A stretch of DNA of 63,288 nt from Dehalococcoidia bacterium (GTDB lineage: Bacteria; Chloroflexota; Dehalococcoidia; SZUA-161; SpSt-899), in NCBI GenBank assembly GCA_046484125.1, contig JAWOBX010000047.1, positions 1 through 63,288 on the forward strand, read 5' to 3'. Of the stretch, positions 8,064 through 49,187 are shown piece by piece; the first letter of the stretch is position 1; the number at the start of each line of letters is the position of its first letter. A program made the translations under genes and the position numbers. The notes beneath the pieces were generated by a model. That model was not told the origin of the DNA. It saw only the letters and a list, made by a program, of their open reading frames with translations, and made no database searches.

Positions 8064-8954
8064 TCAACGGGCCGGTTCTTCAACGAGGCGGATTTCGTTG
8101 CTGGCAAGTGGCTGTTCGATCCAGAAGAGTTCGCCGTTTAAGAAAACGTGATGGGTGGCGTTGATTTCAGGTACGTGGCAGACGAAGGATTGATGATTGG
8201 TTCCTCCGTATTCAACTTCCTCGAGTTCCCCGTTCACTTCAATAGTGAGTTCCGCTGTGTTCAGGTCGTCAGGTAATAAAGCCTCAACTTTGTACGTTTT
8301 ACCGGTTTCCAGTGGAAGGGTCATGTACAGGATATTCCAGAAACCCAGCATCCGGTTTGTAAGCAGCACCGTATCCGGCTTGAGCGGTATCGTTTTTTCC
8401 TCTGGGCTTCCGGAAACAATAACCGTACACTGGGCCGAACCGCTCTGAACCTGGCAGTCGACCGACTGCTTCCGGGAGCCTCAGCCGGAGCCGATTGAGG
8501 AGGTTTCCTGGTAGGAGACGGGATAGCCGGCACGGTCTATTTTAAGGGTGCTACTGGCGACGGTAGGCTGACACATTGAGCTGGAATCGAGGTCAAGCTG
8601 TGATTCCACGGTGTAGATATCGTTTCCGTTCAGTTCCTCTGTGGCGACTATTTTTATCTCGTTGGTCCCGAAAGTTGTGCCGTTTTCATAAAACTGATAG
8701 TTCCACGTCTGACCGACAGAGAGATCGAGGTTACGGGGTATCCACGGGGAGGGCGACGGGGAGGTGGGTGACGGTGAACTTGTTGGCTCGTATGTTACCG
8801 ATGGAGTGGGGGTATCTGTAGATGGCGGGTGGGACGCCGGTGAGACAGGTTGCTCTTTGCCTCCATTATCGCAACCAGTGAAAACGGGTATTACACATAG
8901 CGCGATTACCGCTGCCATCAATATCAGGTATCTTTCCATGGTTCTTGAAATCAT
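8064..8954 (-). CDS. Putative lipoprotein. One reading frame is interrupted by a single in-frame TGA (8481-8483), making it a candidate selenoprotein or a nonsense pseudogene.
   Basis: N-terminus has a signal peptide plus lipobox (VFTGC) and a Pro/Thr/Ser linker. Track ORFs 8481..8954 and 8064..8369 are in the same frame, and the 111 nt between them contains no other stop (..SSIGSG-TGA-GSRKQSVDCQVQSGSAQC..). The downstream piece has no ATG with an SD. Confidence 0.45.
8454..8469 (-). promoter_or_regulatory. Hairpin GCAGUC-GGUC-GACUGC starting 11 nt 3' of the in-frame TGA (SECIS-like candidate)
   Basis: 6-bp stem with a GGUC tetraloop, read directly on the minus strand. The loop lies about 18 nt after the TGA. 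Confidence 0.35.
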
Positions 8955-9277: not shown

Positions 9278-11851
9278 TCAGACCCCTTTGCCACAACACT
9301 TTTTGTACTTCTTTCCACTGCCGCACGGGCACGGGTCGTTGCGCCCGACTTTTTTCCCTGCCGGCACCGCCTTCTTTTCCTCTTTCTGTGGGGCCTGTGT
9401 CTGCCCCTTAACCAGGCTTACCCTGTAAATGCTCTGGACTATATCGCGCTGTATGTTCTGTTGGAGTTCCTGGAACCTCGCGTGGGCTTCTTTCTTGTAC
9501 GCGACAACAGGATCGATCTGGCGGAGGCCCTGCCAGCCGATTCCCTGGCGCATCTCCTCCAGAATTGTCAGGTGATCTCTCCAGCGACTGTCAATGGCCC
9601 GCAGCATTACCAGCCGTTCGAGAACGCGCATATCCGGGGACCCAATCTCCTGCTCGCGGCGGTCATAAAGGGAATCGGCATATTCAACCAGCTTCTCTTG
9701 TATCTCGCCACGACTCATTGTAAGGAAGTCGTCGGTATCGATATCCGGCGGAGGCGGCATCATTTTGCTCAGCTCGGTGAGAAGTGATTCAATGTCCCAG
9801 TCATCCGTTTCCTCTCCCGGTAGATGGGTGTACACGGCATTATTTACTTCCCGCGCGATCATGTCCTGAATATTGGACTTCAAATCGGCGCCGCTAAGCA
9901 GTTTTTCTCTCTCTCCGTAGATAATCTCACGTTGCTTATTAAGTACATCATCATACTCGAGCAACTTCTTGCGTATATCGAAATGGTGTGCCTCAACTTT
10001 TACCTGGGTGTTCTCAATAGCCCTGGATACAATGCGATGTTCAATAGGTACATCCTCATCGAATCCAAATCTTTCCATGATGCTGCCGATGCGATCACCG
10101 CCGAACCGCCGCATAATATCATCCTCGACTGATACAAAAAACCTTGAACTGCCCGGGTCTCCCTGTCTCCCGGCGCGGCCACGTAACTGATTATCTATAC
10201 GGCGCGCCTCGTGGCGTTCTGTACCGATTATGTGCAGTCCGCCGGCCTGAACGACTCGGTCGTGCTCTGAATGCCACTCCTCAGGGTCACGTCCTTCGGG
10301 ATTGCCGCCCAGTATAATATCCACCCCTCGACCGGCCATGCTGGTTGCTATAGTTACGGCGCCCGCGCGTCCGGCCTGTGCCACTATACTGGCTTCCTTC
10401 TCGTGGAGCTTGGCGTTGAGCACGTTGCGGGGTATACCTTTTTTGGTCAGCATCTCGCTGAGTTCCTCGGATTTTTCAACGGAGCATGTTCCCACCAGAA
10501 CGGGCCTTCCCTGATTCCTTGCTTCCTCGATTTCCCGCACAACTGCCTTGAACTTGCCTTTCTCTGTCTGATATATCTGGTCGGTATATTCCTCGCGAAT
10601 GAGAGGTTTGTTGGTCGGTATTACTACAACATCCAGACCGTAGATCTTGTGGAACTCCTCGGCTTCAGTTATGGCCGTACCTGTCATGCCCGCGAGTTTA
10701 TCATACATGCGGAAGTAGTTCTGGAAAGTGATAGTTGCCATGGTGATGCTTTCCCGCTGTATCTGCACACCCTCCTTGGCTTCGATTGCCTGGTGCAACC
10801 CGTCTGATAAACGTCTTCCGGGCATCATCCTTCCGGTGAACTCATCCACGATAACTACTTCGCCTTCCCTGACCACGTATTCTTTATCACGATGATAAAA
10901 GACGAGGGCTCTCAGGGCGTTTTCAATAAAATGGACCATATGCTCGTTCTCTTGATCATAAAGATTGCGGATCCCGAGAAGATTTTCCATTTTGGCTATA
11001 CCCGACTCGGTCAACAAAGCTGTACGCAACTTCTCATCCACTGTATAATCAGTATCCCTTTGCAGGCGGGGAACCAGTCTGGCGAAGGTTTTATAAGTCT
11101 CCGGAGGCTCGTCAGCCTGTCCGCTGATTATCAGCGGGGTTCTGGCCTCATCTATAAGGATATTATCCACCTCGTCGACTATGGCGTAATTGAATCCCCG
11201 CTGGACCCTCTGTGATAGGTCAACGACCATATTATCGCGAAGATAATCGAAGCCAAACTCGTTGTTGGTGCCGTACGTAACCTCGGCGTCGTAGGCTTCT
11301 TTGCGGTAGGCGGGGCGGAGATGAGGCCATGCCTCGTCTTCGTAGTCATATCCGGGATCGAAGATGAATGCGCTATCATGCTGTAAGCAGCTCACGCTAA
11401 TTCCGAGAGCGTGATAAACTGGTCCCATCCATTGCGCATCACGTTTGGAAAGGTAGTCATTAACGGTGACGACGTGCACTCCATCTCCTGTAAGGGAGTT
11501 CAGGTATACGGCCAGGGTGGCCACCAGGGTTTTACCTTCCCCCGTTTTCATCTCGGCTATCTTGCCCTGATGCAGTACTATTCCTCCTACTAACTGGACG
11601 TCGAAGTGCCGCATGCCGAGGGTGATTTGTGCTGCGCGTCGCACGGCGGCAAAGGCCTCCGGGAGGAGGTCGTCAAGGTTCTCTCCACCATCCAGCCGGT
11701 CACGGAATTCGGAGGTCTTATCACGAAGCTGGTCGATGCTGAGTTTCTCGAAATCGGGTTCCAGAGCGTTTATCTCGTCAACCGTGCCCTGAAGGCGCTT
11801 TATCTCCTTTTCGTTCGAATCGCCTAAAACATTCAGAAACTTCTTAAACAC
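9278..11851 (-). CDS. secA: Preprotein translocase ATPase SecA
   Basis: Full-length SecA, including the C-terminal zinc motif [14 protein letters not shown]. Confidence 0.97.
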
Positions 11852-15035: not shown

Positions 15036-15563
15036 TCAAGCCCCATCAAGGCTTATGTGCTGTTTTTTGGCGAACCAGCCCTCAGGGTCAGTGAGGTATT
15101 CCTCAGTATCAATCAGGCTCATATAGTGTTGTTTCTCCTCTTTCGCCAGTGAGCTGTAGAACCTGATCTCAGCCGGGTCAGTCGCCTGCTTACCGCGGTC
15201 TCTATAGAGCCTGAAGCTTTTATCCTCCATATCCAGCGCAATTCGAACGGCGTCAAGCTCTGTGGAGGCTGGTTCCGTTTTTTCTTCCGGGTTTTGCAGC
15301 ACTTCGGAGAACAGCGTCTCTATTTTCTCGCCGGGACCGGCGGTGCGCACCTCTGCGGGCCATGGCTGACCCGCCTTGATTTTTTCGTATATCGTGCGAA
15401 TCGCCTTTTGGTGTTCCAGTTCCTCATCGGCGAGTGTGCGGAAGAGGTTTCCGGCCAGAGTTGTCTGGCCCCTCTCAGCGGAATCCAGATAAAACTGCCT
15501 CCCATCCACCTCCAGTTGCAGAGCCTCCTCCAGAATCTCCAGGGTTTTTGAGGTTTCCGTCAT
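15036..15563 (-). CDS. Rubrerythrin-like diiron (ferritin-like) protein without rubredoxin domain
   Basis: Two ExxH motifs (DEELEHQKA, KEEKQHYMS) in a four-helix-bundle-like layout. Confidence 0.7.
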   Translation of the reverse strand: MTETSKTLEILEEALQLEVDGRQFYLDSAERGQTTLAGNLFRTLADEELEHQKAIRTIYEKIKAGQPWPAEVRTAGPGEKIETLFSEVLQNPEEKTEPASTELDAVRIALDMEDKSFRLYRDRGKQATDPAEIRFYSSLAKEEKQHYMSLIDTEEYLTDPEGWFAKKQHISLDGA

Positions 15564-15799: not shown

Positions 15800-16975
15800 T
15801 TACATTTTACCAGCTATTCTTTGCCCCAGCTCAAAGCATTGTTTAATTTCCGGTTTTTCCGGAACCCAGTTGACGGTAAAAGGCTCATCAACCAGCTCTA
15901 CTCCCGCCAGTTCCAGCTCCTGGCAGATGGCCTTCGTGGCTCCGCCGCCCCACCCGTACGAACCGAAAGCGGTGCCAATCTTGTTCTTCGGCTTGAGTCC
16001 CTTAAGATAACACAGGAAGCCCGCGACTGTAGGAAACATACCGTTGTTGAGCGTAGGAGATCCTATTATCAGAGCTCCAGCGTCGAGTACATTAGTAATG
16101 ATATCACTCTTGTCTGTTGCTGTCAGGTCGAACGATTTCACCTCCACGCCTTCGGAGATCAGTCCTTCCGCGATGGCATTGGCCATCTTCTCCGTGCTGT
16201 GCCACATGGTGTCATAGATGACAAGCGCTTTTCTGGCGGTTTTGCCTTCGGCCCAGTCAGAATAGGCGGAGATTATCTTCGCGGGATCAGAGCGCCATAT
16301 CACCCCGTGATCCGGCGCGATGATTTTAATGCTGAGTCCGCTCAGTTTCTTGACAGCTCCCGGGATCAGGTGACCGAAAAGCATCAGGATATTGGCATAA
16401 TACTTTGCTGCCTCCTGCATAACAACCGCCGGATCCACCTCATCGTCAAAACGCTTGGAGGTGGCAAGGTGCTGGCCGAAAGCGTCGCTGGAGAATAATA
16501 TTTCATCATACGGGGAATAGGTAACCATGGAATCCGGCCAGTGGAGCATTGGCGTCGGGACGAATGTTAGCTGCCGTTTGCCAAGATCCAGGGTGCTTCC
16601 CTCTTTCACCGCGATCATCTGACGCTCAAAGCCGAAATGCTTTTTCAGGCCTGCTTCGCCTCTCTTCTCTGTTGTAATCAACTCGGCTTTCGGTGCCTCC
16701 TGTAGCATCATTGGAAGGGATCCGGAATGATCCATCTCCACGTGATTGGATATGATATAGTCGATGTCTTTGGGGTCGACCAGCTCTTTGATGCGTCCCA
16801 GCATCTCACCGAAGAACGGTTCCTTCACCGTATCGATCAGCGCGATTTTCTCATCCATGATGAGAAAGCAATTATAGGTGGTTCCCCGATGAGTTGAGTA
16901 ACCATGGAAATTCCTTATATTCCAGTCAATAGCTCCAACCCAGTAAACCCTGTCCGTCAATTGAACAGTCGTCAT
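15800..16975 (-). CDS. fprA: Flavodiiron protein (FprA / rubredoxin:oxygen oxidoreductase type)
   Basis: N-terminal metallo-beta-lactamase-like domain with HVEMDHSG, plus a C-terminal flavodoxin domain; about 390 aa. Confidence 0.9.
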   Translation of the reverse strand: MTTVQLTDRVYWVGAIDWNIRNFHGYSTHRGTTYNCFLIMDEKIALIDTVKEPFFGEMLGRIKELVDPKDIDYIISNHVEMDHSGSLPMMLQEAPKAELITTEKRGEAGLKKHFGFERQMIAVKEGSTLDLGKRQLTFVPTPMLHWPDSMVTYSPYDEILFSSDAFGQHLATSKRFDDEVDPAVVMQEAAKYYANILMLFGHLIPGAVKKLSGLSIKIIAPDHGVIWRSDPAKIISAYSDWAEGKTARKALVIYDTMWHSTEKMANAIAEGLISEGVEVKSFDLTATDKSDIITNVLDAGALIIGSPTLNNGMFPTVAGFLCYLKGLKPKNKIGTAFGSYGWGGGATKAICQELELAGVELVDEPFTVNWVPEKPEIKQCFELGQRIAGKM

Positions 16976-17910: not shown

Positions 17911-17950
17911 TTTTTACTCCTTTCAATTAAAATTTCTGGTGTTAATGCAA

Positions 17951-18030
17951 AAACCTCAAATCAATCCCCTCGACCCCCCAATTTTGGGGAGGTTTGTGTC
18001 TGGGGATACCCCCAAAATCCCCGAAGACGT
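17951..18030 (+). repeat. Family-1 dispersed GC-hairpin repeat, copy A
   Basis: aaacCTCAAATCAATCCCCTCGACCCCCCAATTTTGGGGaggtttgtgtctGGGGataCCCCcaaaatCCCCGAAGAC. See copies at 20843, 27046, 31038, 34917, 47716 (reverse) and 62921. Confidence 0.8.
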
Positions 18031-18041
18031 TCATACCAGGA

Positions 18042-20279
<2,238 letters not shown>

Positions 20280-20321
20280 TTACGACTACTCTCCCAACCA
20301 CGGAAAACTGACGTAAAGGAC

Positions 20322-20777
20322 CTACCAGACTTCCGGGTATCCGACATTCACAAAGGCACTCTCCATTCTGGCTTTGTGCTGTTTTTCCATGGTTGCCAGT
20401 TGCGTAAGCAACTCTTTCTGTCGCACATCCGTGGCGATACCTGCCATCCAGGTATAGAGTTCCATCGCCTGCTGTTCCTTTTTCATCGCCAAAGCAAACG
20501 CGTCGGCCGGCTTCATATTGGTCGAAAGATGCGGCTCATCAACAGATTCGGATACGTGGTAATCTGGCACATCCTTGAATTCAATTACGCTTGATTCAGA
20601 CCGTTGAAAGTTCTCCAGAACTGCCCGATGCTGACCCTCTTCTTCAGCCAGCTCGGTGAACAGCTCCTTCAGGAATGTATCCCGCGTTTTCTCCGCTACT
20701 TCAAGGTAAAATTCACGAGCTTTAACTTCATTTCCAATAGCGAATGTCAATATATCATTGTACGATTTGCCCGCCAT
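20322..20777 (-). CDS. Rubrerythrin-like diiron protein without rubredoxin domain (paralog of 26458..26916)
   Basis: AEEEGQHRAVL and MEKQHKARM are ExxH motifs. The architecture matches 26458..26916. Confidence 0.7.
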   Translation of the reverse strand: MAGKSYNDILTFAIGNEVKAREFYLEVAEKTRDTFLKELFTELAEEEGQHRAVLENFQRSESSVIEFKDVPDYHVSESVDEPHLSTNMKPADAFALAMKKEQQAMELYTWMAGIATDVRQKELLTQLATMEKQHKARMESAFVNVGYPEVW

Positions 20778-20842
20778 CCGTTTTCCCCTTTCCTGCTGTT
20801 ATTTACGTAGTAGTTCGTTATCCAAACCTGGTGTTCCCTTAA

Positions 20843-20920
20843 AAATCTCAAACCAACTCCCTCGACCCCCGATCTTGGGGAAGTTTGTTCCAGGGCACAC
20901 CGCCAGAAACCCCGACGGTG
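20843..20920 (+). repeat. Family-1 repeat, copy B
   Basis: aaatCTCAAACCAACTCCCTCGACCCCCGATCTTGGGGaagtttgtt...aaaCCCCGACGG aligns with copy A. Confidence 0.75.
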
Positions 20921-20986
20921 ATCATCTGCCGCGCCTTTTTTGCAGTAAGGTCAGACTTTCCCGCCATATTTCGCCGAACCCATTGA

Positions 20987-23029
20987 TTATCTGAATAACT
21001 CGATCATTTTTCCCGGATCTGTCGTAGGCAATGAGCAGGAGAAATTAAAGCAAACATAGGCAGTTGCTCGGCCATCGATACTGACAAGATCGCGAGTAAA
21101 CGGAGCTATTTTGTGAATTTCAGGTGATGATTCTTCTACTGATTTATAAATCACCACCTTGTTAGGCAGAAATGTTTTACTCAGCTTCTGCAGCATGTTG
21201 TCGGTTCCCTCTGTACCGATATCACCCGCAATGACAACTTCGTAAGTGGGACCAGTGGCAAAGTTCAAGGCGCACATAAGCTGCGTATAAGCGACCGGCG
21301 CCTTTTCCACATCGTTTGAAAACGCCTTACCTATCCGTTCGGCTCTCTGTTCGAACTCAGAATTGGCGGTTATGCGGCCTAACCTCAGCAGGTTCATCAT
21401 AGCCACAGAGTTGGCAGATGGAATCGCGCCATCATAGATTTCTTTCTGGCGAATGAAAAGCCGCTCACCATCGTCGGGTGTGGCGAAAAAACCGCCTTGT
21501 GTTTCATCCCAGAAGTGTTTCCTGAAATCCTGATCAAGTTGCAGAGCCGTGCTTAGATACCTGGTTTCGAATATGGCTTCATATAGCTCAAGCAAACCCC
21601 AAACGAAAAAAGCATAGTCATCAGCGTATGCGGATATAGCCGCCTCCCCATCGCGATATCGGTGCAGCAATCGGCCTTCAGGTGTACGCATCGTATTCAG
21701 TATGAAATCCGCCGCCATCCTGGCCGACTTCGCGTATTCCGGCTCGTCAAAAGCCTGTGCCGCTTTCGACAGCGCGGCGATCATTAACCCGTTCCAGTCG
21801 GTGAGAAGCTTGTCATCCTTGTGAGGATGGATGCGCTTTTGACGATGTTCGAACAGTTTTTGCCTGGCAGCTTTCCACCGGGATTCAGCTTCCTCAGACA
21901 ATAATCCCTTTAAGTGCAGAATGTTATAGCCCGTCTCTTGCCGCGTGGCTTCTTCCCGGTAATTGCCTTCCGGGCTAATGTTGAATGTGTTTATAACTGA
22001 ATCAGCTTCATCGCCCAGCACTTGCCTGATTTCATCTTCACTCCAGATGTAGAACTTCCCTTCTTCACCCTCACTGTCGGCATCCTCCGCGGAGTAAAAT
22101 CCACCTTCAGGCGCTGTCATATCACGCAAAACATAGGTGATTATTTCGCGCGCAGTTTGCTCATATTTCGGGTTGCCGGTAGCCTGATAGGCCTCGGTAT
22201 AGGCCGTCACCAGCATAGCCTGATCGTAGAGCATCTTCTCGAAGTGGGGAACCAGCCATTCCCGATCCGTGGAATAGCGATGAAAACCGAATCCGACATG
22301 GTCGTAGATGCCGCCGCAGCGCATGGACTGCAGGGTCTGTTCGACCATTTGCATCGCTTTATCGGCATGTGTGTTTTTCCAGTAGCGCAGGAGGAACAGC
22401 AGATTGTGCGGCGTCGGGAATTTGGGGGCGCTTCCAAATCCGCCATACTGACTATCAAACCGGGCTGCCAATTCCTCATAGGCGGAACTCAAGAGATGCG
22501 CTTCCAATTCTTCTCCAGGTGTGCCCGGTGAGATCTGCTGCACGGTAGAAGTTATTTTTCGGGCGGATTCAAGTAATTCAGATTTACGATTGATCCAGAT
22601 GTCCTTTACTTTAGGTATTAAATCTATCATGCCGATACGGCCAAACCGGGTTTCTTTAGGGATATAGGTGGCGGCGAAGAATGGTTGCTTATCCGGCGTC
22701 ATCATGATGGTGAGCGGCCAGCCCCCGCTTCCGGTCATCATCTGACAGACGGTCATATAGATGCCGTCGATATCGGGGCGCTCTTCACGATCGACTTTGA
22801 TAGATATAAACGCATCATTCATCAACCGGGCGACCTGCTCGTCTTCAAATGATTCATGGGCCATCACATGGCACCAGTGACAGGTCGAATAACCAACCGA
22901 AAGGAAAACCGGCTTGTTTTCCTCCCTCGCCTTCCGGAACGCTTCATCTGCCCACGGATACCAGTCAACGGGATTATCCGCGTGTTGAAGGAGATAGGGG
23001 CTTTTTTCGTGGGCTAGCTTATTGGGCAT
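20987..23029 (-). CDS. DUF255 thioredoxin-domain protein (YyaL/SSP411-like)
   Basis: [19 protein letters not shown]...[15 protein letters not shown], followed by a six-hairpin-glycosidase-like body. Confidence 0.9.
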
Positions 23030-23053
23030 GACATTACCACAGCTTTTGCCGAG

Positions 23054-23326
23054 TCAGTGATTGATGGCACCTTCCCGAAAGATGAAGACATACGATTCCC
23101 CGACTTCCACGCGCACCTCCCCACCCCGCGATTCGGCGTAAATCTCCCAGCTTTCCTTACCATCTTCCTGACAGCACTCGACGTTGGGGAAATGCCGATC
23201 CTGAATTCGGTCCAGCCAGCTTAGGTTCATGGGTTCCTTCAGGTGTTTGCCCGCCTCCGCATCGGCCAGTTTCCGGGCCTGATCAAAGGCCAAATCAGCA
23301 TTAGATTCCAGCTTAACTGTTTTCAT
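23054..23326 (-). CDS. Hypothetical protein (90 aa)
   Basis: Its ATG overlaps the stop of the upstream copZ-like frame in an ATGA arrangement. No family recognised. Confidence 0.5.
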   Translation of the reverse strand: MKTVKLESNADLAFDQARKLADAEAGKHLKEPMNLSWLDRIQDRHFPNVECCQEDGKESWEIYAESRGGEVRVEVGESYVFIFREGAINH

Positions 23327-23561
23327 ATTTCTTCATCCCTTCCAGCTATACCAGATTCACTTGACCAACCATGACCGGCTTCCCCTATTGCCAAACTAAT
23401 TTCATCCATGGTCACAGAATCGGGTTTTTTAAAAGGTCACTTCCCCTGTTGGCAGATCAATTTTCATATCCTGTACCCCGGGCAAGCTCTGACGCGCCCC
23501 TGCGACATGGCGAACGCAGTTAACACAACTCATACCGCTTATGCTAATGGTTGTTTTTCAT
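23323..23561 (-). pseudogene. copZ: CopZ-like HMA metallochaperone gene disrupted by two +1 frameshifts in homopolymer runs
   Basis: GGAGG-N5-ATG at 23561. Removing one A from the A5 run (23554-23558) and one T from the TTTTAAAAAA run (23425-23434) restores MKTTISISGMSCVNCVRHVAGARQSLPGVQDMKIDLPTGEVTFKKPDSVTMDEISLAIGEAGHG..., a complete HMA fold with GMSCxxC. Confidence 0.75.
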
Positions 23562-23582
23562 CCCATCCTCCCGGCTTATGAA

Positions 23583-24086
23583 TCAGGCTGGCGGATGGAA
23601 AACCCGGCCCGCCAATTCCTTATCCAGATTCATCAGCGCCTCCTTATCATTCGCGGCGGATCTCACCCTATCCAGAAGCTTACCAGCGGTTTCCTCTTCT
23701 TCAACCTGTTCCTTGACATACCATTGCAGTAAGTCCCTGGTAGTACTGTCATTTTCCTCTTCCGCGAGATCAACCAGTCCTTGGATCAGTCCGGTAACGA
23801 ATTTTTCGTGGGCCAGTGTATTTTCAAACATCGCCAGCGGCGAATCGAAGTCAATCCGGGGTTGATCGATGGCCATTAACCGGACTTTATTGCCACTACG
23901 CAGAATATAATCATAGAATTTCATAGCGTGGGCCATTTCTTCCTGATACTGGACCATAAACCAGTTGGCGAACCCTTTCAAACCCAGTGATGCGCACTCG
24001 GCCGACATCGCCATATAAAGATAACCCGAATACATTTCCTTATTAAGTTGAACGTTCAGCGCTTCGGCCATTCTTTCGCTCAGCAT
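23583..24086 (-). CDS. ftn: Non-heme ferritin
   Basis: LNVQLNKEMYSGYLYMAMS...YQEEMAHAMKFYDY is canonical bacterial ferritin. Confidence 0.92.
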   Translation of the reverse strand: MLSERMAEALNVQLNKEMYSGYLYMAMSAECASLGLKGFANWFMVQYQEEMAHAMKFYDYILRSGNKVRLMAIDQPRIDFDSPLAMFENTLAHEKFVTGLIQGLVDLAEEENDSTTRDLLQWYVKEQVEEEETAGKLLDRVRSAANDKEALMNLDKELAGRVFHPPA

Positions 24087-24119
24087 AAACCGACCTCCTT
24101 TCCGCCTGTCTCAATTACT

Positions 24120-24470
24120 TCAGATCGTGATAATCTGATACCCCGCCTCGATATATTTGGCCATCGCCGGATGGCCGGACATCTCATCGCAAATCGGTAA
24201 TCCCTGCGCCCCGGCATCCGCCAGGGTGCCGGTTTTGCCGGAACACGCCTTACATACACAATCGACCAGATTTAGCTCTTTGACTCTGGCATAGAGATTG
24301 GCGAACGGTTTACTCGAATCGGCCAGATCTTTAATCTGCTGAGTGGCTGTTCCTTCGATCACCAGCTTGACCTCGTAACCTTTTTCATTCAAATCCAGTG
24401 TATTGAGCAGGGCATGAGCGAAACACACTGGCTCTCCTCTGAAGGCATAGATCACTATTTTCGGATTCAT
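24120..24470 (-). CDS. DsrE/DsrF-like family small protein (tentative)
   Basis: MNPKIVIYAFRGEPVCFAHALLN... has a Rossmann-like start typical of DsrE-fold proteins. ATG 24470 is preferred over the track start at 24512. Confidence 0.4.
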   Translation of the reverse strand: MNPKIVIYAFRGEPVCFAHALLNTLDLNEKGYEVKLVIEGTATQQIKDLADSSKPFANLYARVKELNLVDCVCKACSGKTGTLADAGAQGLPICDEMSGHPAMAKYIEAGYQIITI

Positions 24471-24566
24471 ATCTTCATCCTGTTGAGCGAAAAATCTCGT
24501 TACGGAGTACACAAAGCATTTAACTTCCAGCTCTGTGTACTCCGTTTGAAATTTCGTAATACTCAG

Positions 24567-25277
24567 CTAGAAAGCCATTTCGGGCTTCCACTCTTTCCAG
24601 ACCTTGCCCGCCAGATTAGGCCCTGGTTTAAGCGTGGGTTTTCCGGGCTGCCAGCCGGCCGGCGTCACCTCTCCTGTTGCCTTGACATGCTGATAGGCTT
24701 GAACCTGCCGGAGCAATTCAGCGAAATTTCGTCCGACTTCCGGTGTCATGACTTCCATCGCCACGATCTTGCCGTCAGGATCGATCAGAAAACGGCCCCG
24801 AATATCGACGCCGGCATCCTCATCATATACGCCATATACTTTGCCGATTTTGCCGCCGGCATCGGAGAGCATGGGGAAGGGTACACCGCCCTCAACCATC
24901 TTTGAGAGCTCTTCTTCCTGCCATATCTTGTGGGTGAACCGGCTATCGGTACTAAGTGAAAGAACTTCCACGCCCAGTGCTTTCAATTCCGGATACTTGA
25001 CGGCAACTGCCGACAGTTCCGTAGGTCAGACAAAGGTGAAATCGCCGGGGTAGAAACAGATAACCACCCACTGTCCCTGATAATCCGATAATCTAATATT
25101 TTTGAAGCCCCCGTCAATGTATGCCGGGGCTTCGAAATCCGGTGCCGGTTTGCCAACTTTAGCAAGCACTCTGGGTACCTCCTTCTGTGGTGTACTGGGT
25201 GAGGCCGCGGATTCCTCAGCCTCGTCAGAGATGGGTCCTTTTGCCGGTGTTACGCATCCATCCACTGGTTCTGCCAT
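24567..25277 (-). CDS. prxU: Selenocysteine-containing peroxiredoxin (AhpC/Prx1 type) with TGA at the peroxidatic position
   Basis: The minus strand reads ..[13 protein letters not shown](25026-25028)-PTELSAVAV..LSLSTDS.. The track splits this into 25026..25277 and 24567..24986, which share a frame. A SECIS-like hairpin follows directly. Confidence 0.8.
25000..25022 (-). promoter_or_regulatory. SECIS-like stem-loop 3 nt downstream of the Prx TGA
   Basis: ACGGAACUG-UCGG-CAGUU(G)CCGU: a 9-bp stem with one bulged G and a 4-nt G-rich loop. Confidence 0.6.
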
Positions 25278-25295
25278 TGTAATCGACCTCCAAAA

Positions 25296-25646
25296 TCAGA
25301 TTTCAATACAGTTCTGCCACAATCCGTGAATGTTGCAGTATGAAAGCGCGCAGATGGCTTTGAACTGATCTAATGGGGTATGGAAAGATATATTAGGGCT
25401 TGTAAATGCAGGACCGAAGGCGGCTCTGCCCAGGTCTACCACCTGGCCGTTATCCTTCTTTACCCCGAAGACCTCCAGCCAGACGATATGGTGCTCTACC
25501 GTGTTCGGATGCGGTGTTTCCTTCCCGATCACTACGTGAATCAGGTCGGTCTTATCCGATCCGTGCTCTTTCATGATCTCGATTGTCGGCACATGTTTTT
25601 CTTTCCCTTCAGCCTCCGCGCTTTTCAAGACTTCCGCAAATTGCAT
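25296..25646 (-). CDS. sor: Superoxide reductase (1Fe-SOR / neelaredoxin type)
   Basis: KHVPTIE, HPNTVEHHIVW and CNIHGLW are the SOR iron ligands. Confidence 0.88.
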   Translation of the reverse strand: MQFAEVLKSAEAEGKEKHVPTIEIMKEHGSDKTDLIHVVIGKETPHPNTVEHHIVWLEVFGVKKDNGQVVDLGRAAFGPAFTSPNISFHTPLDQFKAICALSYCNIHGLWQNCIEI

Positions 25647-25773
25647 TTTTGACTCCTTTCTTTTATTTTTGCAAAATAACCATCATCTTTCGGGTTTCGA
25701 CTAAACGTTTGCTCACATCTTATCCATATCCGGGCGATGATACGGGCTCGCCTCTAAAAATCCATCCCTCTGC

Positions 25774-25932
25774 CTATATCGGTTCGAAAACTTCTTTACC
25801 TGATCCGCATTGCGGGCATACCCAATCATCGGGCAAATTTTCGAAGGCTGTCCTCGGCGGGATGCCGCTTTCAGAATCACCAGCCTCCGGATCGTAAACA
25901 TAGGTACACGTCGTGCACTGGTATTTTCTCAT
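25774..25932 (-). CDS. rub: Rubredoxin (52 aa, below the ORF-track size cutoff)
   Basis: My translation is [58 protein letters not shown] lies 7 nt upstream. Confidence 0.9.
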
Positions 25933-26080
25933 TCAGTAACCTCCTATTAATGCCGACGGATATGAATTTTGAACCGGCTTTTATGGCACACGCCACAGTC
26001 CCGCACATCAGGCGCAACTATTACAGGTTTTCTCCCGTAAATACCGGGCCTCACTACGTGCCATAAAAGCCGATATCGCG

Positions 26081-26416
26081 CTAAACCTTCTGAAACTCTT
26101 CTTTTCCCGCGCCGCAAACCGGGCAGGTCCAGTCCTCAGGAAGATCGTCGAACGGCGTTCCGGGCGGGATGTTACTCTCAGGGTCGCCAGCCTCGGGATC
26201 ATAAACGTATCCGCATACCTGGCATTCATACTTATCCATTTTCAGTTCCCCCTTTATTTTTAGTTGGCTATCATCAACGCGGCAATGCGGGCAAATCCAG
26301 TCATCAGGTATGTCCTCAAGAGGCGTGCCTGGTGGTATATCACTCTCCGGCTCCCCTCTCGAAGGGTCGTATTTGTAACTACACACCAGGTATTCGCCCT
26401 GACATAGTATCGGCAT
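26081..26416 (-). CDS. Tandem rubredoxin: an atypical N-terminal Rd-like domain fused in-frame to a canonical rubredoxin
   Basis: Domain 2 is [26 protein letters not shown]. Domain 1 is [28 protein letters not shown], with the first CxxC Cys position occupied by Tyr. No stop lies between them, and an internal RBS-like AGGGGGA precedes the second Met (26239). Confidence 0.65.
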
Positions 26417-26457
26417 CCCGTTTCTCCATCTATAATTGATGACGCTTGTTGTCCCAC

Positions 26458-26916
26458 CTAATCCCATTGGTAGAACAAGTCGTCGTATATAAGTTCCAGC
26501 CTTTGTTTGTGCTTCAGCTCCGCGTGAACCAGATTTTCACATAACTCCTTTGCCTTACGAGTCCTCAGGGCGCCCATCATTCTGGAATAGAATTCGATGG
26601 CGTCCTGTTCCCGCTTCATGGCGAATAGGAGAACTTCCTGGATGCCGGCTCCTTCGGTGACCTTGTCCGGCCCGGTCAGGTGCTCGGTAATTTTAAGGTC
26701 GGCTATTCTGTCCTTATCGAATAGCGATTCCTGAACGCCCTTTTCCTTAAAATCCTTCAACATCTTAAGGTGATGGCCTTCCTCCTCAGCCAGTTCCCTG
26801 AGAAGCTGCCGGGCTCCCGGGTCTTCAATCCGCCGTGAGGCTTCATCGTATTGCGCTTGCGATGCCACCTCTTTATACATCGCTGTTTCCATTATTTCGT
26901 CCAGTTCCGTTGACAT
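26458..26916 (-). CDS. Rubrerythrin-like diiron protein without rubredoxin domain
   Basis: [11 protein letters not shown] and [10 protein letters not shown] are ExxH motifs. Paralog of 20322..20777. Confidence 0.7.
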
Positions 26917-27045
26917 CAGGTAACCTCCTCAAAGCACAAGAATTTCTCTAAACAATGAACCCGGCATCCTGAGCGTATCTTCAGGTGTAGCGCATTTCGA
27001 TGGTTTCTCTGTATCGCCTTTCAGATGTGAAGAACTGGTACTAAG

Positions 27046-27144
27046 AAACCTCCGATCAGCCCCCTCTTCAATCCCCCAATCACGGGGGAGTTACGAAGCC
27101 GCGGGACGCCCCCGCCCCCCGAAGTCACCTCTTATCGAGGAGGT
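27046..27144 (+). repeat. Family-1 repeat, copy C
   Basis: aaaCCTCCGATCAGCCCC..CAATCCCCCAATCACGGGGGagttacgaagccGCGGGacgccCCCGCCCCCCGAAGTCACCTC. Confidence 0.8.
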
Positions 27145-27147
27145 CCC

Positions 27148-27720
27148 CTAATAATTCTCACTCAGTAATTCATAATAAGCTCGCGGGTGAGCGCAGGCCG
27201 GACAGGTTTCCGGGGCTTCCTTTCCCTCGTAAACATAACCGCAATTGCGACATTTCCACCTCACAACCTCGTCTTTCTTGAAAACGGTGCCTTCTCTTAC
27301 ATTCGCCAGAAGTCTCCGGTATCTCTTTTCATGCTGCTCCTCGACTTCGGCGATTTCCTTGAAAACCGTGGCGATCTCCTCAAAGCCTTCTTCGCGGGCG
27401 ACCTGCTCGGCGTCTTTATAGAGTCTGGTCCACTCCAGTTTCTCGCCATCGGCGGCGGCCTCAAGGTTAGCAGCCGTATTGGATATTACTCCCGCAGGAA
27501 AGCCGGCTGTTATCTCGACCTCGCCACCCTCGAGAAACTCGAAGAATCGCTTGGCGTGTTCTTTCTCATTCTCCGCCGTTTCCAGGAATATCGCTGCTAT
27601 CTGTTCGTAACCCGCCTTTTTAGCTACGGAAGCGAAATAGGAGTAGCGATTCCTGGCCTGTGATTCGCCGGCGAACGCGGCCAACAGGTGCCGTTCGGTT
27701 TTGCTGCCTTTCAGTTGCAT
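27148..27720 (-). CDS. rbr: Rubrerythrin (190-aa classical form)
   Basis: FAGESQARNRY, ENEKEHAK, and C-terminal CRNCGY...CPACAHP. Confidence 0.92.
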   Translation of the reverse strand: MQLKGSKTERHLLAAFAGESQARNRYSYFASVAKKAGYEQIAAIFLETAENEKEHAKRFFEFLEGGEVEITAGFPAGVISNTAANLEAAADGEKLEWTRLYKDAEQVAREEGFEEIATVFKEIAEVEEQHEKRYRRLLANVREGTVFKKDEVVRWKCRNCGYVYEGKEAPETCPACAHPRAYYELLSENY

Positions 27721-27861
27721 TGAAGTTCTCCTTTCATGTTGAAAATGTCCGAGTGGACGCTAAATCAAATATGGAGGCCCGTTTTTAAAGGCCTTTTGAG
27801 AAACCGACTCGATAAAGTCCTCTTTGCTGGAAACGAACAGAAAATGGTGCGGCGATATACC

Positions 27862-29100
27862 CTAAAACAGGTCCTTTTCGCTTTCCTCGATTGTTCGCTG
27901 AAGTTCAGCTTCGAGATCGGGCGGGAGGCCTTCGATATCCACGTTCAGGAAGCCACGCACGATCATAGCAGTAGCTTCGTCGCGTGTTAATCCCCGTGCC
28001 ATAAGATATTCCACCTCCTCTTCGGCGATCTTGCCGACGGCCGCCTCATGTGAAAGATCAACGTTGGCTACGCGGCCGACGAGCTCAGGGATGGCGTGAA
28101 TGGTCCCCGCCTCACCAAGAATAAGACCGCGGCATTCCAGGTGCCCGATGACCTCCGGTTTATTTGCCTGGATATCCCCGCGGGCTATTATGGTTCCTCC
28201 GGTGGTAATGGTTCGGGAGATTATTTCGGCTCGTGCTCCCTCGGCGTCGAGAATTGCCCTTGAGCCTACATCCATAAAAGACCCTTCTGTAGCAACGAGC
28301 ACACTGTTGAATCGAGCTATGGAGTTGGGCCCGACGAGATGGGCGGTGGGATACATTTGCATGGTCCGGACCGGTTTCATGGATATATAATTATTGAGGA
28401 AAACGCCATCTTCCTCGACTATAACGGTACTGCGTGGGCGAACCTCGATATCCGGTGCCCAGTTATGAATCATCGTAAACGACACAGTGGCACCCTTCTT
28501 TATATAGAACTCAGATACTCCGAGATGCAAACCCGCTGACATCGGATGAGTGGTGCAGCCGGTTATGATATGCAGCTCCGATCCCTCCTCGGCTATGACG
28601 ATATTATGCACTCGTTGAGAAATGTTCTTATGCCCCAGGTAAAGACATGCCTGAACGGGAAAAGCCGATTTCACCCCCGGCAATGTTCGGATGAAGTAAC
28701 CGTCAGTTTCGTTAATCTCCAGGCTGGCGGTATATTTGTCGGAATCTACTTTGACCGCATTCCACCAGTAATTCTCAAGCCATTCATATTTCCTTCGGGC
28801 TTCAGAAGTACTCATCACCTCGACGCCCTCCTGGAGGGTAGAGAAGTGAACCGGCTTCTGGTCCTTCTGGACAAAGGTGCCCGACCGCTGGCTTAAATCA
28901 TCGAGCATGACCCCGGCCCTGAGCATGCTTGCCTTTTCTTCGTCGGGCAGTTTTGACGGATCCTCTTCGTACGTGTAGTCATCCCCATCGTCAGTGTACC
29001 GGCTGAGATCGATATCACTGCCTATTGCGGATGCTTTGTTGGCCGCACTCTGTGCTAAATCCCGTCTGTTCTGCTTGTTTATCTCTGGCATGTTCGGCAC
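27862..29100 (-). CDS. sufB: Fe-S cluster assembly protein SufB/SufD family
   Basis: Beta-helix SufBD domain; located directly downstream of sufC, overlapping it. Confidence 0.85.
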   Translation of the reverse strand: MPNMPEINKQNRRDLAQSAANKASAIGSDIDLSRYTDDGDDYTYEEDPSKLPDEEKASMLRAGVMLDDLSQRSGTFVQKDQKPVHFSTLQEGVEVMSTSEARRKYEWLENYWWNAVKVDSDKYTASLEINETDGYFIRTLPGVKSAFPVQACLYLGHKNISQRVHNIVIAEEGSELHIITGCTTHPMSAGLHLGVSEFYIKKGATVSFTMIHNWAPDIEVRPRSTVIVEEDGVFLNNYISMKPVRTMQMYPTAHLVGPNSIARFNSVLVATEGSFMDVGSRAILDAEGARAEIISRTITTGGTIIARGDIQANKPEVIGHLECRGLILGEAGTIHAIPELVGRVANVDLSHEAAVGKIAEEEVEYLMARGLTRDEATAMIVRGFLNVDIEGLPPDLEAELQRTIEESEKDLF

Positions 29101-47820: not shown

Positions 47821-48003
47821 TTGGACGTTACTATGCCACTGGGTACACTAACGGGAAAATTGCTACAATTCTGGTCATGGCTGTCGAATGATAAGTCCTG
47901 CCAGGAATGTACATCACGCAATGATCAATGTGATGGGTGTCATATTGGTTATGGGCCACACAAGTATATAGTTAAAATTGTTACAAAGGAGCAGCGAAAA
48001 TGA
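47821..48003 (+). CDS. Possible small CxxC...CxxC protein translationally coupled to the IscS-like gene
   Basis: CQEC..CDGC, and its stop overlaps the ATG of the next gene (ATGA). The start codon and RBS are weak, so it could be spurious. Confidence 0.3.
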   Translation: MDVTMPLGTLTGKLLQFWSWLSNDKSCQECTSRNDQCDGCHIGYGPHKYIVKIVTKEQRK

Positions 48004-49187
48004 GTGAAATCTATCTTGACAACTTGTCGGCGACGCCGGTGGATCCCAGGGTCCTGGAGGAGATGCTGCCATATTTCCGGGAATCTTTTGGAAACCCGGT
48101 TGCCTTTGGCGATCGGGGAGGCAGGGCGAGTGATGCCGTCGAAAATGCGCGTACCAGGGTGGGAAATCTCATAAACGCGACGTCGAACGAGATCATCTTC
48201 ACCTCGTGCGGAACTGAGTCGAACAACATGGCCATCAAAGGATTGGCCATAGCCCGCAGGGGGAGGGGAAGGCACATTATCATATCGTCCATTGAACATT
48301 TTTCCGTACTTCATCCGGCGCGCACTCTGGAGAAACTGGGGTTCGAGGTCACCCAGTTGCCCGTGGATGAATACGGGAAGGTGGACCCGGAGCAAGTGAA
48401 GCAGAATCTGAGGCAGGATACCACACTTGTGTCGGTGATGTATGCCAACAGCGAAGTCGGCACCATACAGCCGATAAAGGAGATAGCCTCACTGGTCAGA
48501 GAGTCAGGGGCGGTTTTTCATACAGACGCGGTCGCCGCCGCCGGCGTTGTTCCCCTTGATGTTCAGGATCTGGGTGTGGACTGCCTGAGCATGGCGGCCA
48601 GCCAGTTCTACGGTCCTACGGGAGCGGGAGCGCTGTGGCTTCGCCGTGGGATACAGATAATGCCGCTGCTCGAGGGAGGGGTACAGGAATCGGATAAGAG
48701 GTCGGGGACACATAACGTGCCGGCCATTGTCGGACTGGGGAGGGCGGCGGAACTGGCTCAGGAGGAGATGGAATCGAGGAATCGGCATATCGCCGGATTG
48801 CGGGACAGGCTGAGGGACGGGTTGACAGAGCGTATCGACCATATAGTTCTAACCGGGCATCCGACTGACCGACTGCCCGGTAATGTTAGCCTGTGTGTCA
48901 ATTTCATTGAGGGCGAGGCCATGCTGGCCTTCCTGGAGAACGCCGGGATCGCCGCGGCCAGCGGTTCAGCCTGCACCTCAAAAATGCTCAAATCATCCCA
49001 TGTTCTCCATGCAATGGGTTATGCGCCTGAGGTGGCCCAGGGCTCACTTCTCTTCACACTCGGGAAGGAGAACACCAATGAGGACATTGAGCCTGTGCTG
49101 GAAGCTTTCCCGCCCATCGCGGACAGGTTACGGCAAATGTCCCCCCTGTATGATAAATTCCTGAAGAGCCAGAAAGGAGGAAACTAA
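48000..49187 (+). CDS. NifS/IscS-like class V aminotransferase-fold protein lacking the PLP Schiff-base lysine
   Basis: GTESNN, SSIEH and the persulfide loop ASGSACTS are present. The SGHK motif reads AASQ (VDCLSMAASQFYGPTGAGALWLRR). Confidence 0.8.
   Translation: MSEIYLDNLSATPVDPRVLEEMLPYFRESFGNPVAFGDRGGRASDAVENARTRVGNLINATSNEIIFTSCGTESNNMAIKGLAIARRGRGRHIIISSIEHFSVLHPARTLEKLGFEVTQLPVDEYGKVDPEQVKQNLRQDTTLVSVMYANSEVGTIQPIKEIASLVRESGAVFHTDAVAAAGVVPLDVQDLGVDCLSMAASQFYGPTGAGALWLRRGIQIMPLLEGGVQESDKRSGTHNVPAIVGLGRAAELAQEEMESRNRHIAGLRDRLRDGLTERIDHIVLTGHPTDRLPGNVSLCVNFIEGEAMLAFLENAGIAAASGSACTSKMLKSSHVLHAMGYAPEVAQGSLLFTLGKENTNEDIEPVLEAFPPIADRLRQMSPLYDKFLKSQKGGN

Follow-up and report, generated by a model that had tools for sequence, protein, structure and literature searches.

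The minus-strand reading frame between positions 24567 and 25277 of the window (the entire stretch of 63,288 nucleotides analyzed here) is, as read from its sequence, one intact gene, predicted to encode a thioredoxin-dependent peroxiredoxin of the PrxU family. The frame contains a single in-frame TGA, at 25028..25026, within the local motif P77-G-D-F-T81-F-V-U84. The coordinates of the gene, of its notable codons and RNA structures, and of its neighbors are collected in Table 1.

Table 1. Features at the prxU locus, with their positions in the window
Feature	Position	Strand	Basis
Upstream gene, desulfoferrodoxin/neelaredoxin-type superoxide reductase	25296..25646	(-)	Pfam PF01880, E 3e-22
Shine-Dalgarno sequence GGAGG	25287..25291	(-)	Read from sequence; 9 nt before the ATG at 25277
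prxU coding sequence, 236 codons and TAG stop, one internal UGA = Sec	24567..25277	(-)	Translation, Pfam, NCBIfam, coding potential
Cys8 codon, candidate resolving Cys, in the N-terminal extension M-x-E-x-x-D-x-C-V-x-P-A-x-G-P-I	25254..25256	(-)	Alignments A1 and A3
Cys74 codon (VVI-C-FYPGD), 10 residues before Sec	25056..25058	(-)	Homologue counts
UGA codon, Sec84, predicted peroxidatic residue of P77-xxx-T81-xx-U84	25026..25028	(-)	Sequence and homologous loci
Extended stem of the window's MFE fold, lower stem CGGAACUG / CAAGUAUCCG	24990..25021	(-)	-15.0 kcal/mol, z -2.3
Conserved predicted SECIS core hairpin GUCGGC-AGUU-GCCGUC	24999..25014	(-)	MFE fold, 83-sequence alignment A2, covariation, divergent clade
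Thr205 codon, site of the canonical C-terminal resolving Cys (GEV-T-P for GEVCP)	24663..24665	(-)	Translation, alignments
Downstream gene, DsrE-like small protein	24120..24512	(-)	Pfam PF02635, E 3.1e-05
Ferritin	23583..24086	(-)	Pfam PF00210, E 4.1e-43

The 236-residue read-through protein scores 394.5 bits against the NCBIfam model NF040737 ("peroxi_PrxU"; cut-off, 270), with residues 6 to 234 matching the profile over its full length (positions 2 to 233 of 233), and it therefore belongs to a curated, experimentally founded selenoprotein family. The second-best NCBIfam model is AhpC (TIGR03137), with a score of 190.6 bits that lies under its cut-off of 272. A single Pfam AhpC-TSA match (profile positions 1 to 123 of 124; E 7.6e-40) spans the TGA uninterrupted, the C-terminal domain matches Pfam 1-cysPrx_C, and coding potential is present in both halves in the same frame. 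Alignments A1 and A3 show no variation at the active-site residues T81 and R160 (in DIRGRF), whose counterparts in human Prx2 and AcePrx-1 are catalytic. We built an AF2 model on the natural Cys homologue P0028, standing in for the window protein; it is confident, with a pLDDT of 88.

A preliminary description of this DNA had noted that ORF calling missplits the gene, and the ORF list indeed gives two fragments, 25026..25277 (83 amino acids) and 24567..24986 (139 amino acids). It had also placed the TGA at the position of the peroxidatic Cys, in agreement with our reading of the minus strand, and had recognized a selenocysteine (Sec) peroxiredoxin of the PrxU kind, an assignment now backed by the NF040737 membership, the conservation of the TGA, and a covarying hairpin. 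Neither a pair of fragments nor a pseudogene is the appropriate annotation for the locus; we propose a single 236-amino-acid selenoprotein with a transl_except at 25028..25026.

Experiments have verified Prx as a selenoprotein family in prokaryotes, with TxxU as its motif (PMC13188914), and PrxU of Eubacterium (Peptoclostridium) acidaminophilum is referred to as a Sec-containing peroxiredoxin (Sohling et al. 2001, cited in PMC13188914). The protein encoded in the window resembles that PrxU, and the NF040737 family, in its full-length match, in the UGA/Sec within PxxxTxxU, in having no canonical C-terminal resolving Cys, and in its strict-anaerobe context; it differs in host lineage, the best named relatives of SecA being MAGs of Dehalococcoidia/Chloroflexota that are 64 to 71% identical. 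Sec-Prx is among the commonest bacterial selenoprotein families, with 91 proteins in 78 organisms (PMC5029168), and it has been predicted in Syntrophus aciditrophicus, Syntrophobacter fumaroxidans, Geobacter metallireducens, Anaeromyxobacter, and others (PMC1794560; PMC5029168). What these share with our case is the Prx TxxU family, the anaerobic hosts, the coexistence of Sec and Cys forms, and repeated Cys-to-Sec conversions; unlike the catalogued genomes, the window copy and its metagenomic relatives, of which there are 80+, mostly have no annotation or a wrong one with Trp at the Sec position. The prxU gene is genuine, yet nothing unusual in an anaerobic bacterium, and it enlarges a well-catalogued family by one member.

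Conservation and reading of the UGA codon

Is the TGA a stop, a codon for a standard amino acid, or a Sec codon? All 88 homologous loci that were read as DNA (4 MAG genomes, 80 metagenome contigs, and 4 further contigs) carry TGA at this position. The MAG loci, L001 to L004, come from Syntrophales, Calditrichaceae, Desulfarculaceae, and Anaerolineales; the metagenome loci (80/80) are 67 to 84% identical to the window protein, and the remaining 4/4 contigs represent a more distant clade that is 59 to 63% identical. Cys occupies the Sec84 column in 44 of the 120 best database homologues, and the corresponding codon is TGC or TGT in six close Cys forms read as DNA and in 76 ordinary Prx loci. The latter came, along with 4 close relatives, from a contig scan in which the generic pattern DFTFVCPT dominated, and these 76 ordinary Cys-Prx loci were reused as a control. 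Judged by these homologues, the TGA at 25028..25026 is a conserved codon and no lesion.

The two fragments that standard ORF calling produces, and the fact that no Sec machinery is seen within the window, are what one would expect of a pseudogene, in which a nonsense mutation or a sequencing error makes the TGA a terminator and leaves the fragments as remnants of a Cys-peroxiredoxin gene. Such a lesion would not recur in every one of the homologous loci, which are drawn from several phyla and many metagenomes and span 59 to 84% protein identity. Both halves, moreover, have coding potential and full-length family conservation, and an RNA hairpin downstream of the TGA covaries. We consider it extremely improbable that the gene is a pseudogene.

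The public databases seem to point to another possibility, namely, that the UGA specifies a standard amino acid and yields Trp or Cys at position 84, either under an alternative code (4 or 25) or by SECIS-independent near-cognate read-through. A "W" is recorded at the Sec84 column in 74 of the 120 best database homologues. For two of these proteins, P0071 and P0067, direct comparison with the table-4 translation of their loci showed that the "W" is a TGA read with code 4; a search for exact matches between our homologous loci and the database "W" proteins found none. The spurious Trp in most close relatives stems from gene calling on short contigs with code 4, and users of public protein sets should know that it sits at the catalytic residue. 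Within the window, TGA is the commonest stop and ends 23 of the 52 genes, and the large housekeeping genes for SecA, Lon, KatG, and PGK are all intact under code 11. A peroxidatic Trp would abolish the function of a peroxiredoxin, and a covarying hairpin at a fixed spacing, whose GU loop resembles that of fdhF, would have no role in simple read-through. A standard amino acid at position 84 is thus very unlikely, and Sec remains the preferred reading.

The hairpin downstream of the UGA codon

The preliminary description had claimed a SECIS hairpin after the UGA. A hairpin is present, but in a different register: the conserved core lies at 25014..24999, with a 6-bp stem and an N-GU-N' loop, and extends from +15 to +30 counted from the U of the UGA, leaving an 11-nt spacer. 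The loop, AGUU, occupies 25008..25005, with its G-U at 25007..25006 (+22/+23). The fold of the 20-nt core has a z of -4.4 (0/200 shuffles). Across the whole window we counted 3 SECIS-pattern TGA sites, with 0.66 expected, and only 2 of them interrupt long ORFs. Rfam SECIS families matched neither the whole window at gathering thresholds nor the two hairpin regions at E <= 10, as expected because bacterial SECIS elements are short.

RNAalifold, run on alignment A2 (83 sequences), retained only the 3 innermost pairs, and for this reason the named structures were counted directly in A2. The stem at columns 22-30/33-41 is paired in 86.3% of cells. Cells changed on both sides number 65, where shuffles give 17.2 +/- 5.8 (0/500), and the stem has a covariation score of 0.232 as opposed to 0.106. 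Pairs 24-39, 25-38, 27-36, and 30-33 each occur with 3 to 6 standard pair types. Much of the pairing potential of the stem is supplied for free by the codons GCN-GCN-GUN-GCN-GYN, and it is therefore covariation at synonymous sites that makes the case for selection on structure; the close Cys forms still hold 4.83 of the 6 stem pairs. Three pairs fall purely on third codon positions, and these vary in a compensatory manner: 24-39 (GC 58, AU 4, CG 4, UA 4, GU 3, UG 1), 27-36 (GC 75, AU 5, GU 2), and 30-33 (AU 59, GC 20, CG 2, GU 1). The same three synonymous pairs are formed in 238 of 249 cells in the Sec forms versus 11 of 18 in the six close Cys forms (Fisher p = 3.7e-5), which encode the same AAVAA peptide. 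The local folding energy is -9.4 kcal/mol for the Sec forms, -5.1 for the close Cys forms, and -1.7 for ordinary Prx. In the divergent clade (59 to 63% identical) the stem is perfect, UUCAGC-AGUU-GCUGAA, and three of its pairs have both bases replaced. G31 and U32 of A2 are invariant in 83/83 sequences. An invariant Val codon begins with these same two bases; the close Cys forms permit Ile at this codon, which is consistent with an additional RNA constraint on the Sec forms.

The mini-SECIS of E. coli fdhF comprises nt 15 to 31, lies 11 nt from the UGA, and has an essential G23/U24 (PMC8659212). The prxU element is like it in being located within the ORF, in its 11-nt spacer, in forming a short stem-loop from +15, and in the N-G-U-N' loop. 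It differs in its length of 16 nt instead of 17 and in its lower stem, which is not conserved among homologues (columns 45 to 48 of A2 are variable). The prxU element has no conserved bulged U17, and so its GU falls at +22/+23 and not at +23/+24 as in fdhF. In 37 of the 83 sequences, the window included, pair 25-38 is mismatched as U.U or U.C, with no conserved bulge; this mismatch might, or might not, take the role of the bulged U17. Twenty of the 83 homologues have the loop GGUC, which is also that of the second Sec candidate gene in the window and that of fdhF.

The stem originally drawn as the SECIS, ACGGAACUG-UCGG-CAGUU(G)CCGU at 25022..25000, has 9 bp, a bulged G, and the loop UCGG. This structure can be drawn in the window, where its energy is -9.3 kcal/mol compared with -8.3 kcal/mol for the isolated hairpin at +15 to +30, and 81.4% of cells can pair in it across the homologues. 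However, it is not conserved in the homologues, and it covaries no more than shuffled sequences do. Of the 83 sequences, 57 break pair 18-36, 31 break 16-38, 23 break 20-33, and 22 break 24-29; folding the 44 or 61 nt that follow the UGA gives a different MFE structure; and the UCGG loop has no conserved GU. In the second Sec candidate gene, and in the homologue of that gene, the geometry is likewise that at +15 to +30 and not this one. That the hairpin at 25022..25000, and not the one at +15 to +30, is the functional SECIS appears quite improbable.

We put the probability that this is a genuine Sec-encoding prxU gene with a SECIS at +15 to +30 from the UGA at about 0.92. By analogy with E. 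coli fdhF, the UGA at 25028..25026 would be recoded as Sec in translation, with the mRNA hairpin at 25014..24999, 11 nt downstream, presumably offering its looped-out G-U to SelB-GTP-Sec-tRNA(Sec).

Conserved cysteines and the resolving step

Over residues 39 to 220 the window protein is about 50% identical to human Prx2 (1QMV/7KJ1), hookworm AcePrx-1 (4FH8), Prx4, and AhpC, and it shares the fold and the active-site motif DFTFVCPTE of typical 2-Cys peroxiredoxins. In contrast to these, it has Sec in place of the peroxidatic Cys, Thr in place of the GEVCP resolving Cys, an extra 37-residue N-terminal extension with a conserved Cys, and Cys74 where ordinary Prx1/AhpC proteins such as human Prx2 and AcePrx-1 have Phe. 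The sequence GEVTPAGW instead of GEVCP had been pointed out previously, and we find Thr205 at 24665..24663 as described; among the 120 best database homologues, 107 have Thr in this column and only 3 have Cys. The protein is predicted to have a Prx1 fold that cannot use the canonical resolving step.

How is the enzyme then regenerated? As judged from its family, the Sec84 selenolate in the P77xxxT81xxU84/R160 site would reduce H2O2 or organic hydroperoxides and be converted to a selenenic acid. With no canonical resolving Cys at the C terminus, regeneration would most likely proceed through a selenenylsulfide with Cys8, which we prefer, or with Cys74, or alternatively by direct attack of thioredoxin. 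This part of the scheme is speculative, and the resolving step is much less certain than the identity of the gene and the SECIS. It is also the part of wider interest, as it concerns the recycling of PrxU-type enzymes that have no canonical resolving Cys.

The preliminary description had deduced a "1-Sec Prx." It was right about the absence of the canonical C-terminal resolving Cys, but the deduction itself is unsafe because C8 and C74 are conserved. In a true 1-Sec peroxiredoxin, thioredoxin or a small thiol would reduce the selenenic acid directly and C8 and C74 would be structural, an alternative that concerns the resolving step only and not the identity of the gene. The Thr at the canonical resolving position and the 1-cysPrx_C match of the C-terminal domain fit this alternative, as does the only moderate confidence of the N-terminal extension in the AF2 model of P0028 (pLDDT, 62 to 80). 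The locus L002, which is without the extension, has the canonical Cys in GSEVCP and so shows that the clade is flexible. Against a purely structural role, Cys8 is conserved wherever the extension occurs (59 of 60 database homologues with it, Cys forms included), is invariant in A1 and A3, and is present in nearly all Sec loci, and Cys74 is found in 110 of the 120 best database homologues and in 85/85 Sec loci. Direct reduction is a plausible option to which we give somewhat less than even odds.

Conserved cysteines in a redox enzyme usually have a redox role. Returning to the selenenylsulfide route, we propose tentatively that Cys8 may swing into the active site and form a Sec84-Cys8 selenenylsulfide that is reduced by thioredoxin, with Cys74 as a possible relay; this detailed scheme, which is undescribed for the Prx1/AhpC fold, is possible but doubtful. 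If true, it would define a new peroxiredoxin subclass with an N-terminal resolving Cys, common to Sec and Cys forms. PrxU of E. acidaminophilum has about 203 residues with Sec at position 47, and so it would lack the 37-residue extension that bears Cys8. A literature search for the mechanism of PrxU or for an N-terminal resolving Cys returned only citations of the 2001 PrxU paper.

Genomic context and a second UGA-interrupted gene

The prxU gene is situated within an oxygen/peroxide defense cluster with genes for rubredoxins, superoxide reductase, rubrerythrin, ferritins, KatG, and a flavodiiron protein. The superoxide reductase gene has its stop codon at 25298..25296, 18 nt before the prxU ATG, and this short gap suggests an operon. 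Among 90 related loci there is no conserved neighboring reductase gene and oxidative-stress genes recur only loosely; the synteny check found the DsrE-like neighbor in 1 of the 90. The host is probably an uncultured Dehalococcoidia-like anaerobe, which the gene would mark as a user of Sec with a Sec enzyme inside its oxygen/peroxide defense island.

ARAGORN detected no tRNA or tRNA-Sec in the 63-kb window, and Pfam scans of 20 large ORFs identified no SelA, SelB, or SelD there. The Aminotran_5 protein encoded at 48000..49187 looks NifS/cysteine-desulfurase-like rather than SelA-like.

The Sec reading of prxU had been taken to raise the prior for another TGA in the window, given as 8481, and this expectation held up. 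The gene in question (8954..8067, TGA at 8483) has the same hairpin geometry, GCAGUC-GGUC-GACUGC at exactly +15 to +30, and its syntenic homologue L172 retains both the TGA and the hairpin, with the loop AGUU. This second gene lends indirect support to a Sec-decoding trait in the host genome. A word-indexed search for homologues of its protein returned nothing, and an exhaustive search found relatives. This second UGA gene may found an undescribed family of lipoprotein selenoproteins.

Evidence for a selenocysteine codon in prxU

The gene prxU belongs to the curated PrxU family, since its read-through protein scores 394.5 bits against the NCBIfam equivalog model NF040737 ("peroxi_PrxU"; curated cut-off, 270), with protein residues 6 to 234 matching model positions 2 to 233 of 233, and only 190.6 bits against the NCBIfam AhpC model TIGR03137, below the cut-off of 272. 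It adds one gene to a known and curated family of selenoproteins, named after the selenocysteine (Sec)-containing peroxiredoxin of Eubacterium acidaminophilum. A 2006 survey listed 12 Sec-Prx genes, including those of Syntrophus, Syntrophobacter, Geobacter, and Anaeromyxobacter (PMC1794560), a 2016 survey listed 91 in 78 organisms (PMC5029168), and in a 2026 review Prx (PF00578, motif TxxU) figures as a prokaryotic selenoprotein verified by experiment (PMC13188914).

ORF calling returned the prxU frame as two ORFs of 83 and 139 amino acids, the mis-split anticipated in the preliminary description, and retranslation of the minus strand gave the same 28-residue peptide around the TGA. A single Pfam AhpC-TSA match runs across the TGA of the read-through protein (profile positions 1 to 123 of 124; E = 7.6e-40) and is followed by a 1-cysPrx_C match; codon usage is of the coding type, and in one frame, on either side of the TGA. 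Among solved structures, AcePrx-1, human Prx2, and Prx4, all typical 2-Cys peroxiredoxins, come closest (residues 39 to 220 about 50% identical), and the Cys of their DFTFVCPTE motif aligns with the TGA, which is therefore at the peroxidatic position, as had been proposed. The standard Prx active site (P77, T81, U84, and R160) is invariant in both homologue alignments, A1 and A3.

Is the TGA a codon or a lesion? Among the 120 best database homologues, the peroxidatic column holds Cys in 44 and Trp in 74. The Trp is a translation artefact, which arose when genes on short metagenome contigs were called with a code in which TGA means Trp; we checked this for P0071 and P0067, whose encoding contigs have TGA and whose database proteins are table-4 translations. 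TGA occupies the Sec codon in all four MAGs, which are of different lineages (Syntrophales, Calditrichaceae, Desulfarculaceae, and Anaerolineales), and in 80 of 80 metagenome loci (67 to 84% protein identity) obtained by searching with the clade alignment, while ordinary Prx genes found alongside the MAG loci have TGC (48) or TGT (28). This conservation speaks against a pseudogene or a sequencing error. TGA is also the stop of 23 of the 52 confident genes of the window, and code 11 gives unbroken frames for SecA, Lon, KatG, and PGK, so the host does not generally read TGA as sense, against an alternative genetic code. Taken together, homologue codons and stop usage exclude all three explanations. 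The NF040737 match, the conserved TGA, and a covarying hairpin support the Sec peroxiredoxin of the PrxU kind suggested originally.

Coordinates of prxU, its neighbors, and the second UGA gene in the window
Feature	Coordinates	Strand	Remark
prxU start, ATG	25277	minus	behind Shine-Dalgarno GGAGG, 25291..25287
prxU internal TGA	25028..25026	minus	sole internal stop of the frame
prxU stop, TAG	24569..24567	minus	end of frame opened at 25277
Second UGA gene	8067..8954	minus	lipoprotein-like ORF; signal peptide, FTGC lipobox; in-frame TGA 8483..8481
Hairpin of second UGA gene	8469..8454	minus	perfect GCAGUC-GGUC-GACUGC; exactly +15 to +30
Ferritin-like/rubrerythrin-like proteins	15036..15563, 20322..20777, 26458..26916	minus	
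Flavodiiron protein	15800..16975	minus	
KatG	18042..20225	minus	
DUF255 thioredoxin-domain protein	20987..23029	minus	
Superoxide reductase	25296..25646	minus	prxU lies 18 nt downstream
Rubredoxin	25774..25932	minus	
Second ORF with rubredoxin domain	26081..26467	minus	
Rubrerythrin	27148..27720	minus	
SufB/D-like gene	27862..29100	minus	

Register and geometry of the SECIS-like hairpin

A hairpin is present just 3' of the UGA, as described previously, but the register drawn for it (9 bp, loop UCGG) does not hold. We aligned 83 distinct Sec-form segments without gaps from 9 nt before to 63 nt after the TGA (alignment A2; window coordinate = 25038 - column number). In the earlier register (columns 16 to 24 with 29 to 38), 81% of cells are pairable, but across the 83 sequences covariation did not exceed that in shuffles, and pairs 18-36, 16-38, 20-33, and 24-29 are broken in 57, 31, 23, and 22 sequences, respectively. 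In an alternative register (columns 22 to 29 with 34 to 41, loop 30 to 33), 84.8% of cells are paired and 43 are changed on both sides, compared with 11.4 +/- 5.5 in shuffles (0/500). Including the loop-closing pair 30-33 raises these values to 86.3% and 65 cells (17.2 +/- 5.8 in shuffles), with a covariation score of 0.232 versus 0.106 (0/500); slid controls all fell far below. Protein sequence does not account for the covariation at pairs 24-39 (standard pairs: GC 58, AU 4, CG 4, UA 4, GU 3, UG 1), 27-36 (GC 75, AU 5, GU 2), and 30-33 (AU 59, GC 20, CG 2, GU 1), because each joins two third-codon positions. One clade at 59 to 63% identity forms a perfect stem, UUCAGC-AGUU-GCUGAA, in which three pairs differ from the window at both positions, and pair 25-38 is a U.U or U.C mismatch in 37 of 83 sequences, the window included.

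In the window, the 44 nt counted from the UGA have a minimum free energy fold (-15.0 kcal/mol; z = -2.3) that includes the alternative-register hairpin; its 20-nt core has a z of -4.4. As isolated stems, the earlier and alternative registers are comparable in energy (-9.3 versus -8.3 kcal/mol), and hence the choice of register rests on the comparative evidence. No Rfam family matched the prxU hairpin.

With +1 at the U of the UGA, the core hairpin lies at +15 to +30 (25014..24999), after an 11-nt spacer, with an invariant G and U at +22 and +23 (25007 and 25006) between a covarying N-N' pair. In E. coli fdhF, a 17-nt upper stem-loop spans nt 15 to 31, 11 nt from the UGA, and the bulged U17 and loop nucleotides G23 and U24 alone are both conserved and indispensable to SelB binding (PMC8659212). 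The prxU element shares position and loop type with that of fdhF but has no conserved bulged U, and its GU is therefore one nucleotide closer. The loop reads GGUC, also the fdhF loop sequence, in 20 of the 83 homologues.

Six close Cys forms (L161 to L166), in which the encoded peptide is likewise L-(A/T/V)-A-(V/I)-A-x, served as a control. They keep 4.83 of 6 stem pairs, since one GCN codon can pair with another; however, the three synonymous pairs are formed in only 11 of their 18 cells versus 238 of 249 in Sec forms (Fisher p = 3.7e-5). Local folding energies were -9.4 kcal/mol for Sec forms, -5.1 for close Cys forms, and -1.7 for the ordinary Prx genes (76 loci). All Sec forms have Val at the codon that supplies the loop GU, a position where Cys forms can have Ile or Leu. 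The partial stem of these six Cys forms would fit recent conversions in the clade, either Sec-to-Cys or Cys-to-Sec. Two of the six have a GGUC loop.

Candidate resolving residues

The preliminary description pointed to a missing GEVCP resolving Cys and called the enzyme a 1-Sec Prx. The canonical Cys is indeed absent: Thr205 aligns with the Cys of GEVCPAGW in the three solved structures, and Thr is found there in 107 of 120 homologues. The 1-Sec label fits less well, given two other conserved cysteines. Cys8 (25254..25256) is part of a conserved N-terminal extension, M-x-E-x-x-D-x-C-V-x-P-A-x-G-P-I, and is present in 59 of 60 database homologues with the extension, Sec and Cys forms alike. Cys74 (25056..25058), 10 residues before Sec at a position occupied by Phe in ordinary Prx1/AhpC, is found in 110 of 120 homologues and 85 of 85 Sec loci. 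An AF2 model of a natural Cys homologue, P0028 (pLDDT 88.2 overall; 62 to 80 in the extension, with a short strand at residues 14 and 15), suggests that the extension docks on the protein body. Judged by conservation, either Cys8 or Cys74 could be the resolving residue. Because both are conserved and the extension appears to dock, we infer that a pure 1-Sec mechanism is somewhat less likely than a Sec-Cys relay, preferably via Cys8. A literature search on the resolving step of PrxU found nothing.

The Sec form of a Calditrichaceae MAG (L002, 2730..3344) lacks the N-terminal Cys extension, owing to a stop codon just upstream, and has a canonical GSEVCP resolving Cys; two other loci, L118 and L119, have the extension plus a Cys at the canonical site. 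Such sequences hint that the two resolving solutions may be interchangeable within the clade.

A second UGA gene and the genomic neighborhood

We scanned the window for a TGA followed by an 11-nt spacer, a 6-bp stem with at most one pair missing, and an N-GU-N' loop. Three sites were observed versus 0.66 expected, and only two of them, the prxU TGA and that of the second UGA gene, break into long open frames. In the window, 22 TGAs are flanked on each side by 80 or more open codons; a given site would fit the pattern by chance with a probability of about 3e-4. Both halves of the second ORF are coding and in frame, the TGA context is SSIGSG-U-GSRKQSVDC, and neither Pfam nor NCBIfam has a family for it. 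A homologue in locus L172 (2581..3432) retains the TGA (MSTGAG-TGA-GAMTQSVDC) as well as the hairpin, whose loop is AGUU here, and shares the adjoining SecA and Zn-ribbon genes; in more distant homologues (230 to 730 amino acids), the aligned site is occupied by residues other than Cys or by GCSSC. The raised expectation for the TGA at 8481 is thus borne out by the same hairpin geometry and its conservation, and the ORF probably represents an undescribed selenoprotein family. One recoding-signal geometry in two unrelated genes is what a single SelB would require, and it lends indirect support to Sec decoding by the host. The window contains no tRNA genes, and SelA, SelB, and SelD are absent from the 20 large ORFs scanned against Pfam. 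Some practical or exploratory value lies in this second, uncharacterised UGA gene, the conserved Cys8 extension, and the widespread Trp mistranslation of PrxU in databases.

The minus strand from about 15036 to 29100 is a dense oxygen and peroxide defence island, which, besides the genes tabulated, holds a ferritin and a DsrE-like gene; prxU lies within a minus-strand run of these two, rubredoxins, and rubrerythrin-like genes. No single partner gene of prxU is conserved across related loci, where ferritin, superoxide reductase, rubredoxin, rubrerythrin, or KatG recur. The G+C content of the window is 51%, and the best named relatives of its SecA (9278..11851) are Dehalococcoidia/Chloroflexota MAGs at only 64 to 71% identity, other best matches reaching 76 to 78%. 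The probable source is therefore an uncultured, Dehalococcoidia-like anaerobe that lacks close relatives among sequenced genomes. Selenoprotein users are known within Chloroflexi (PMC1794560).
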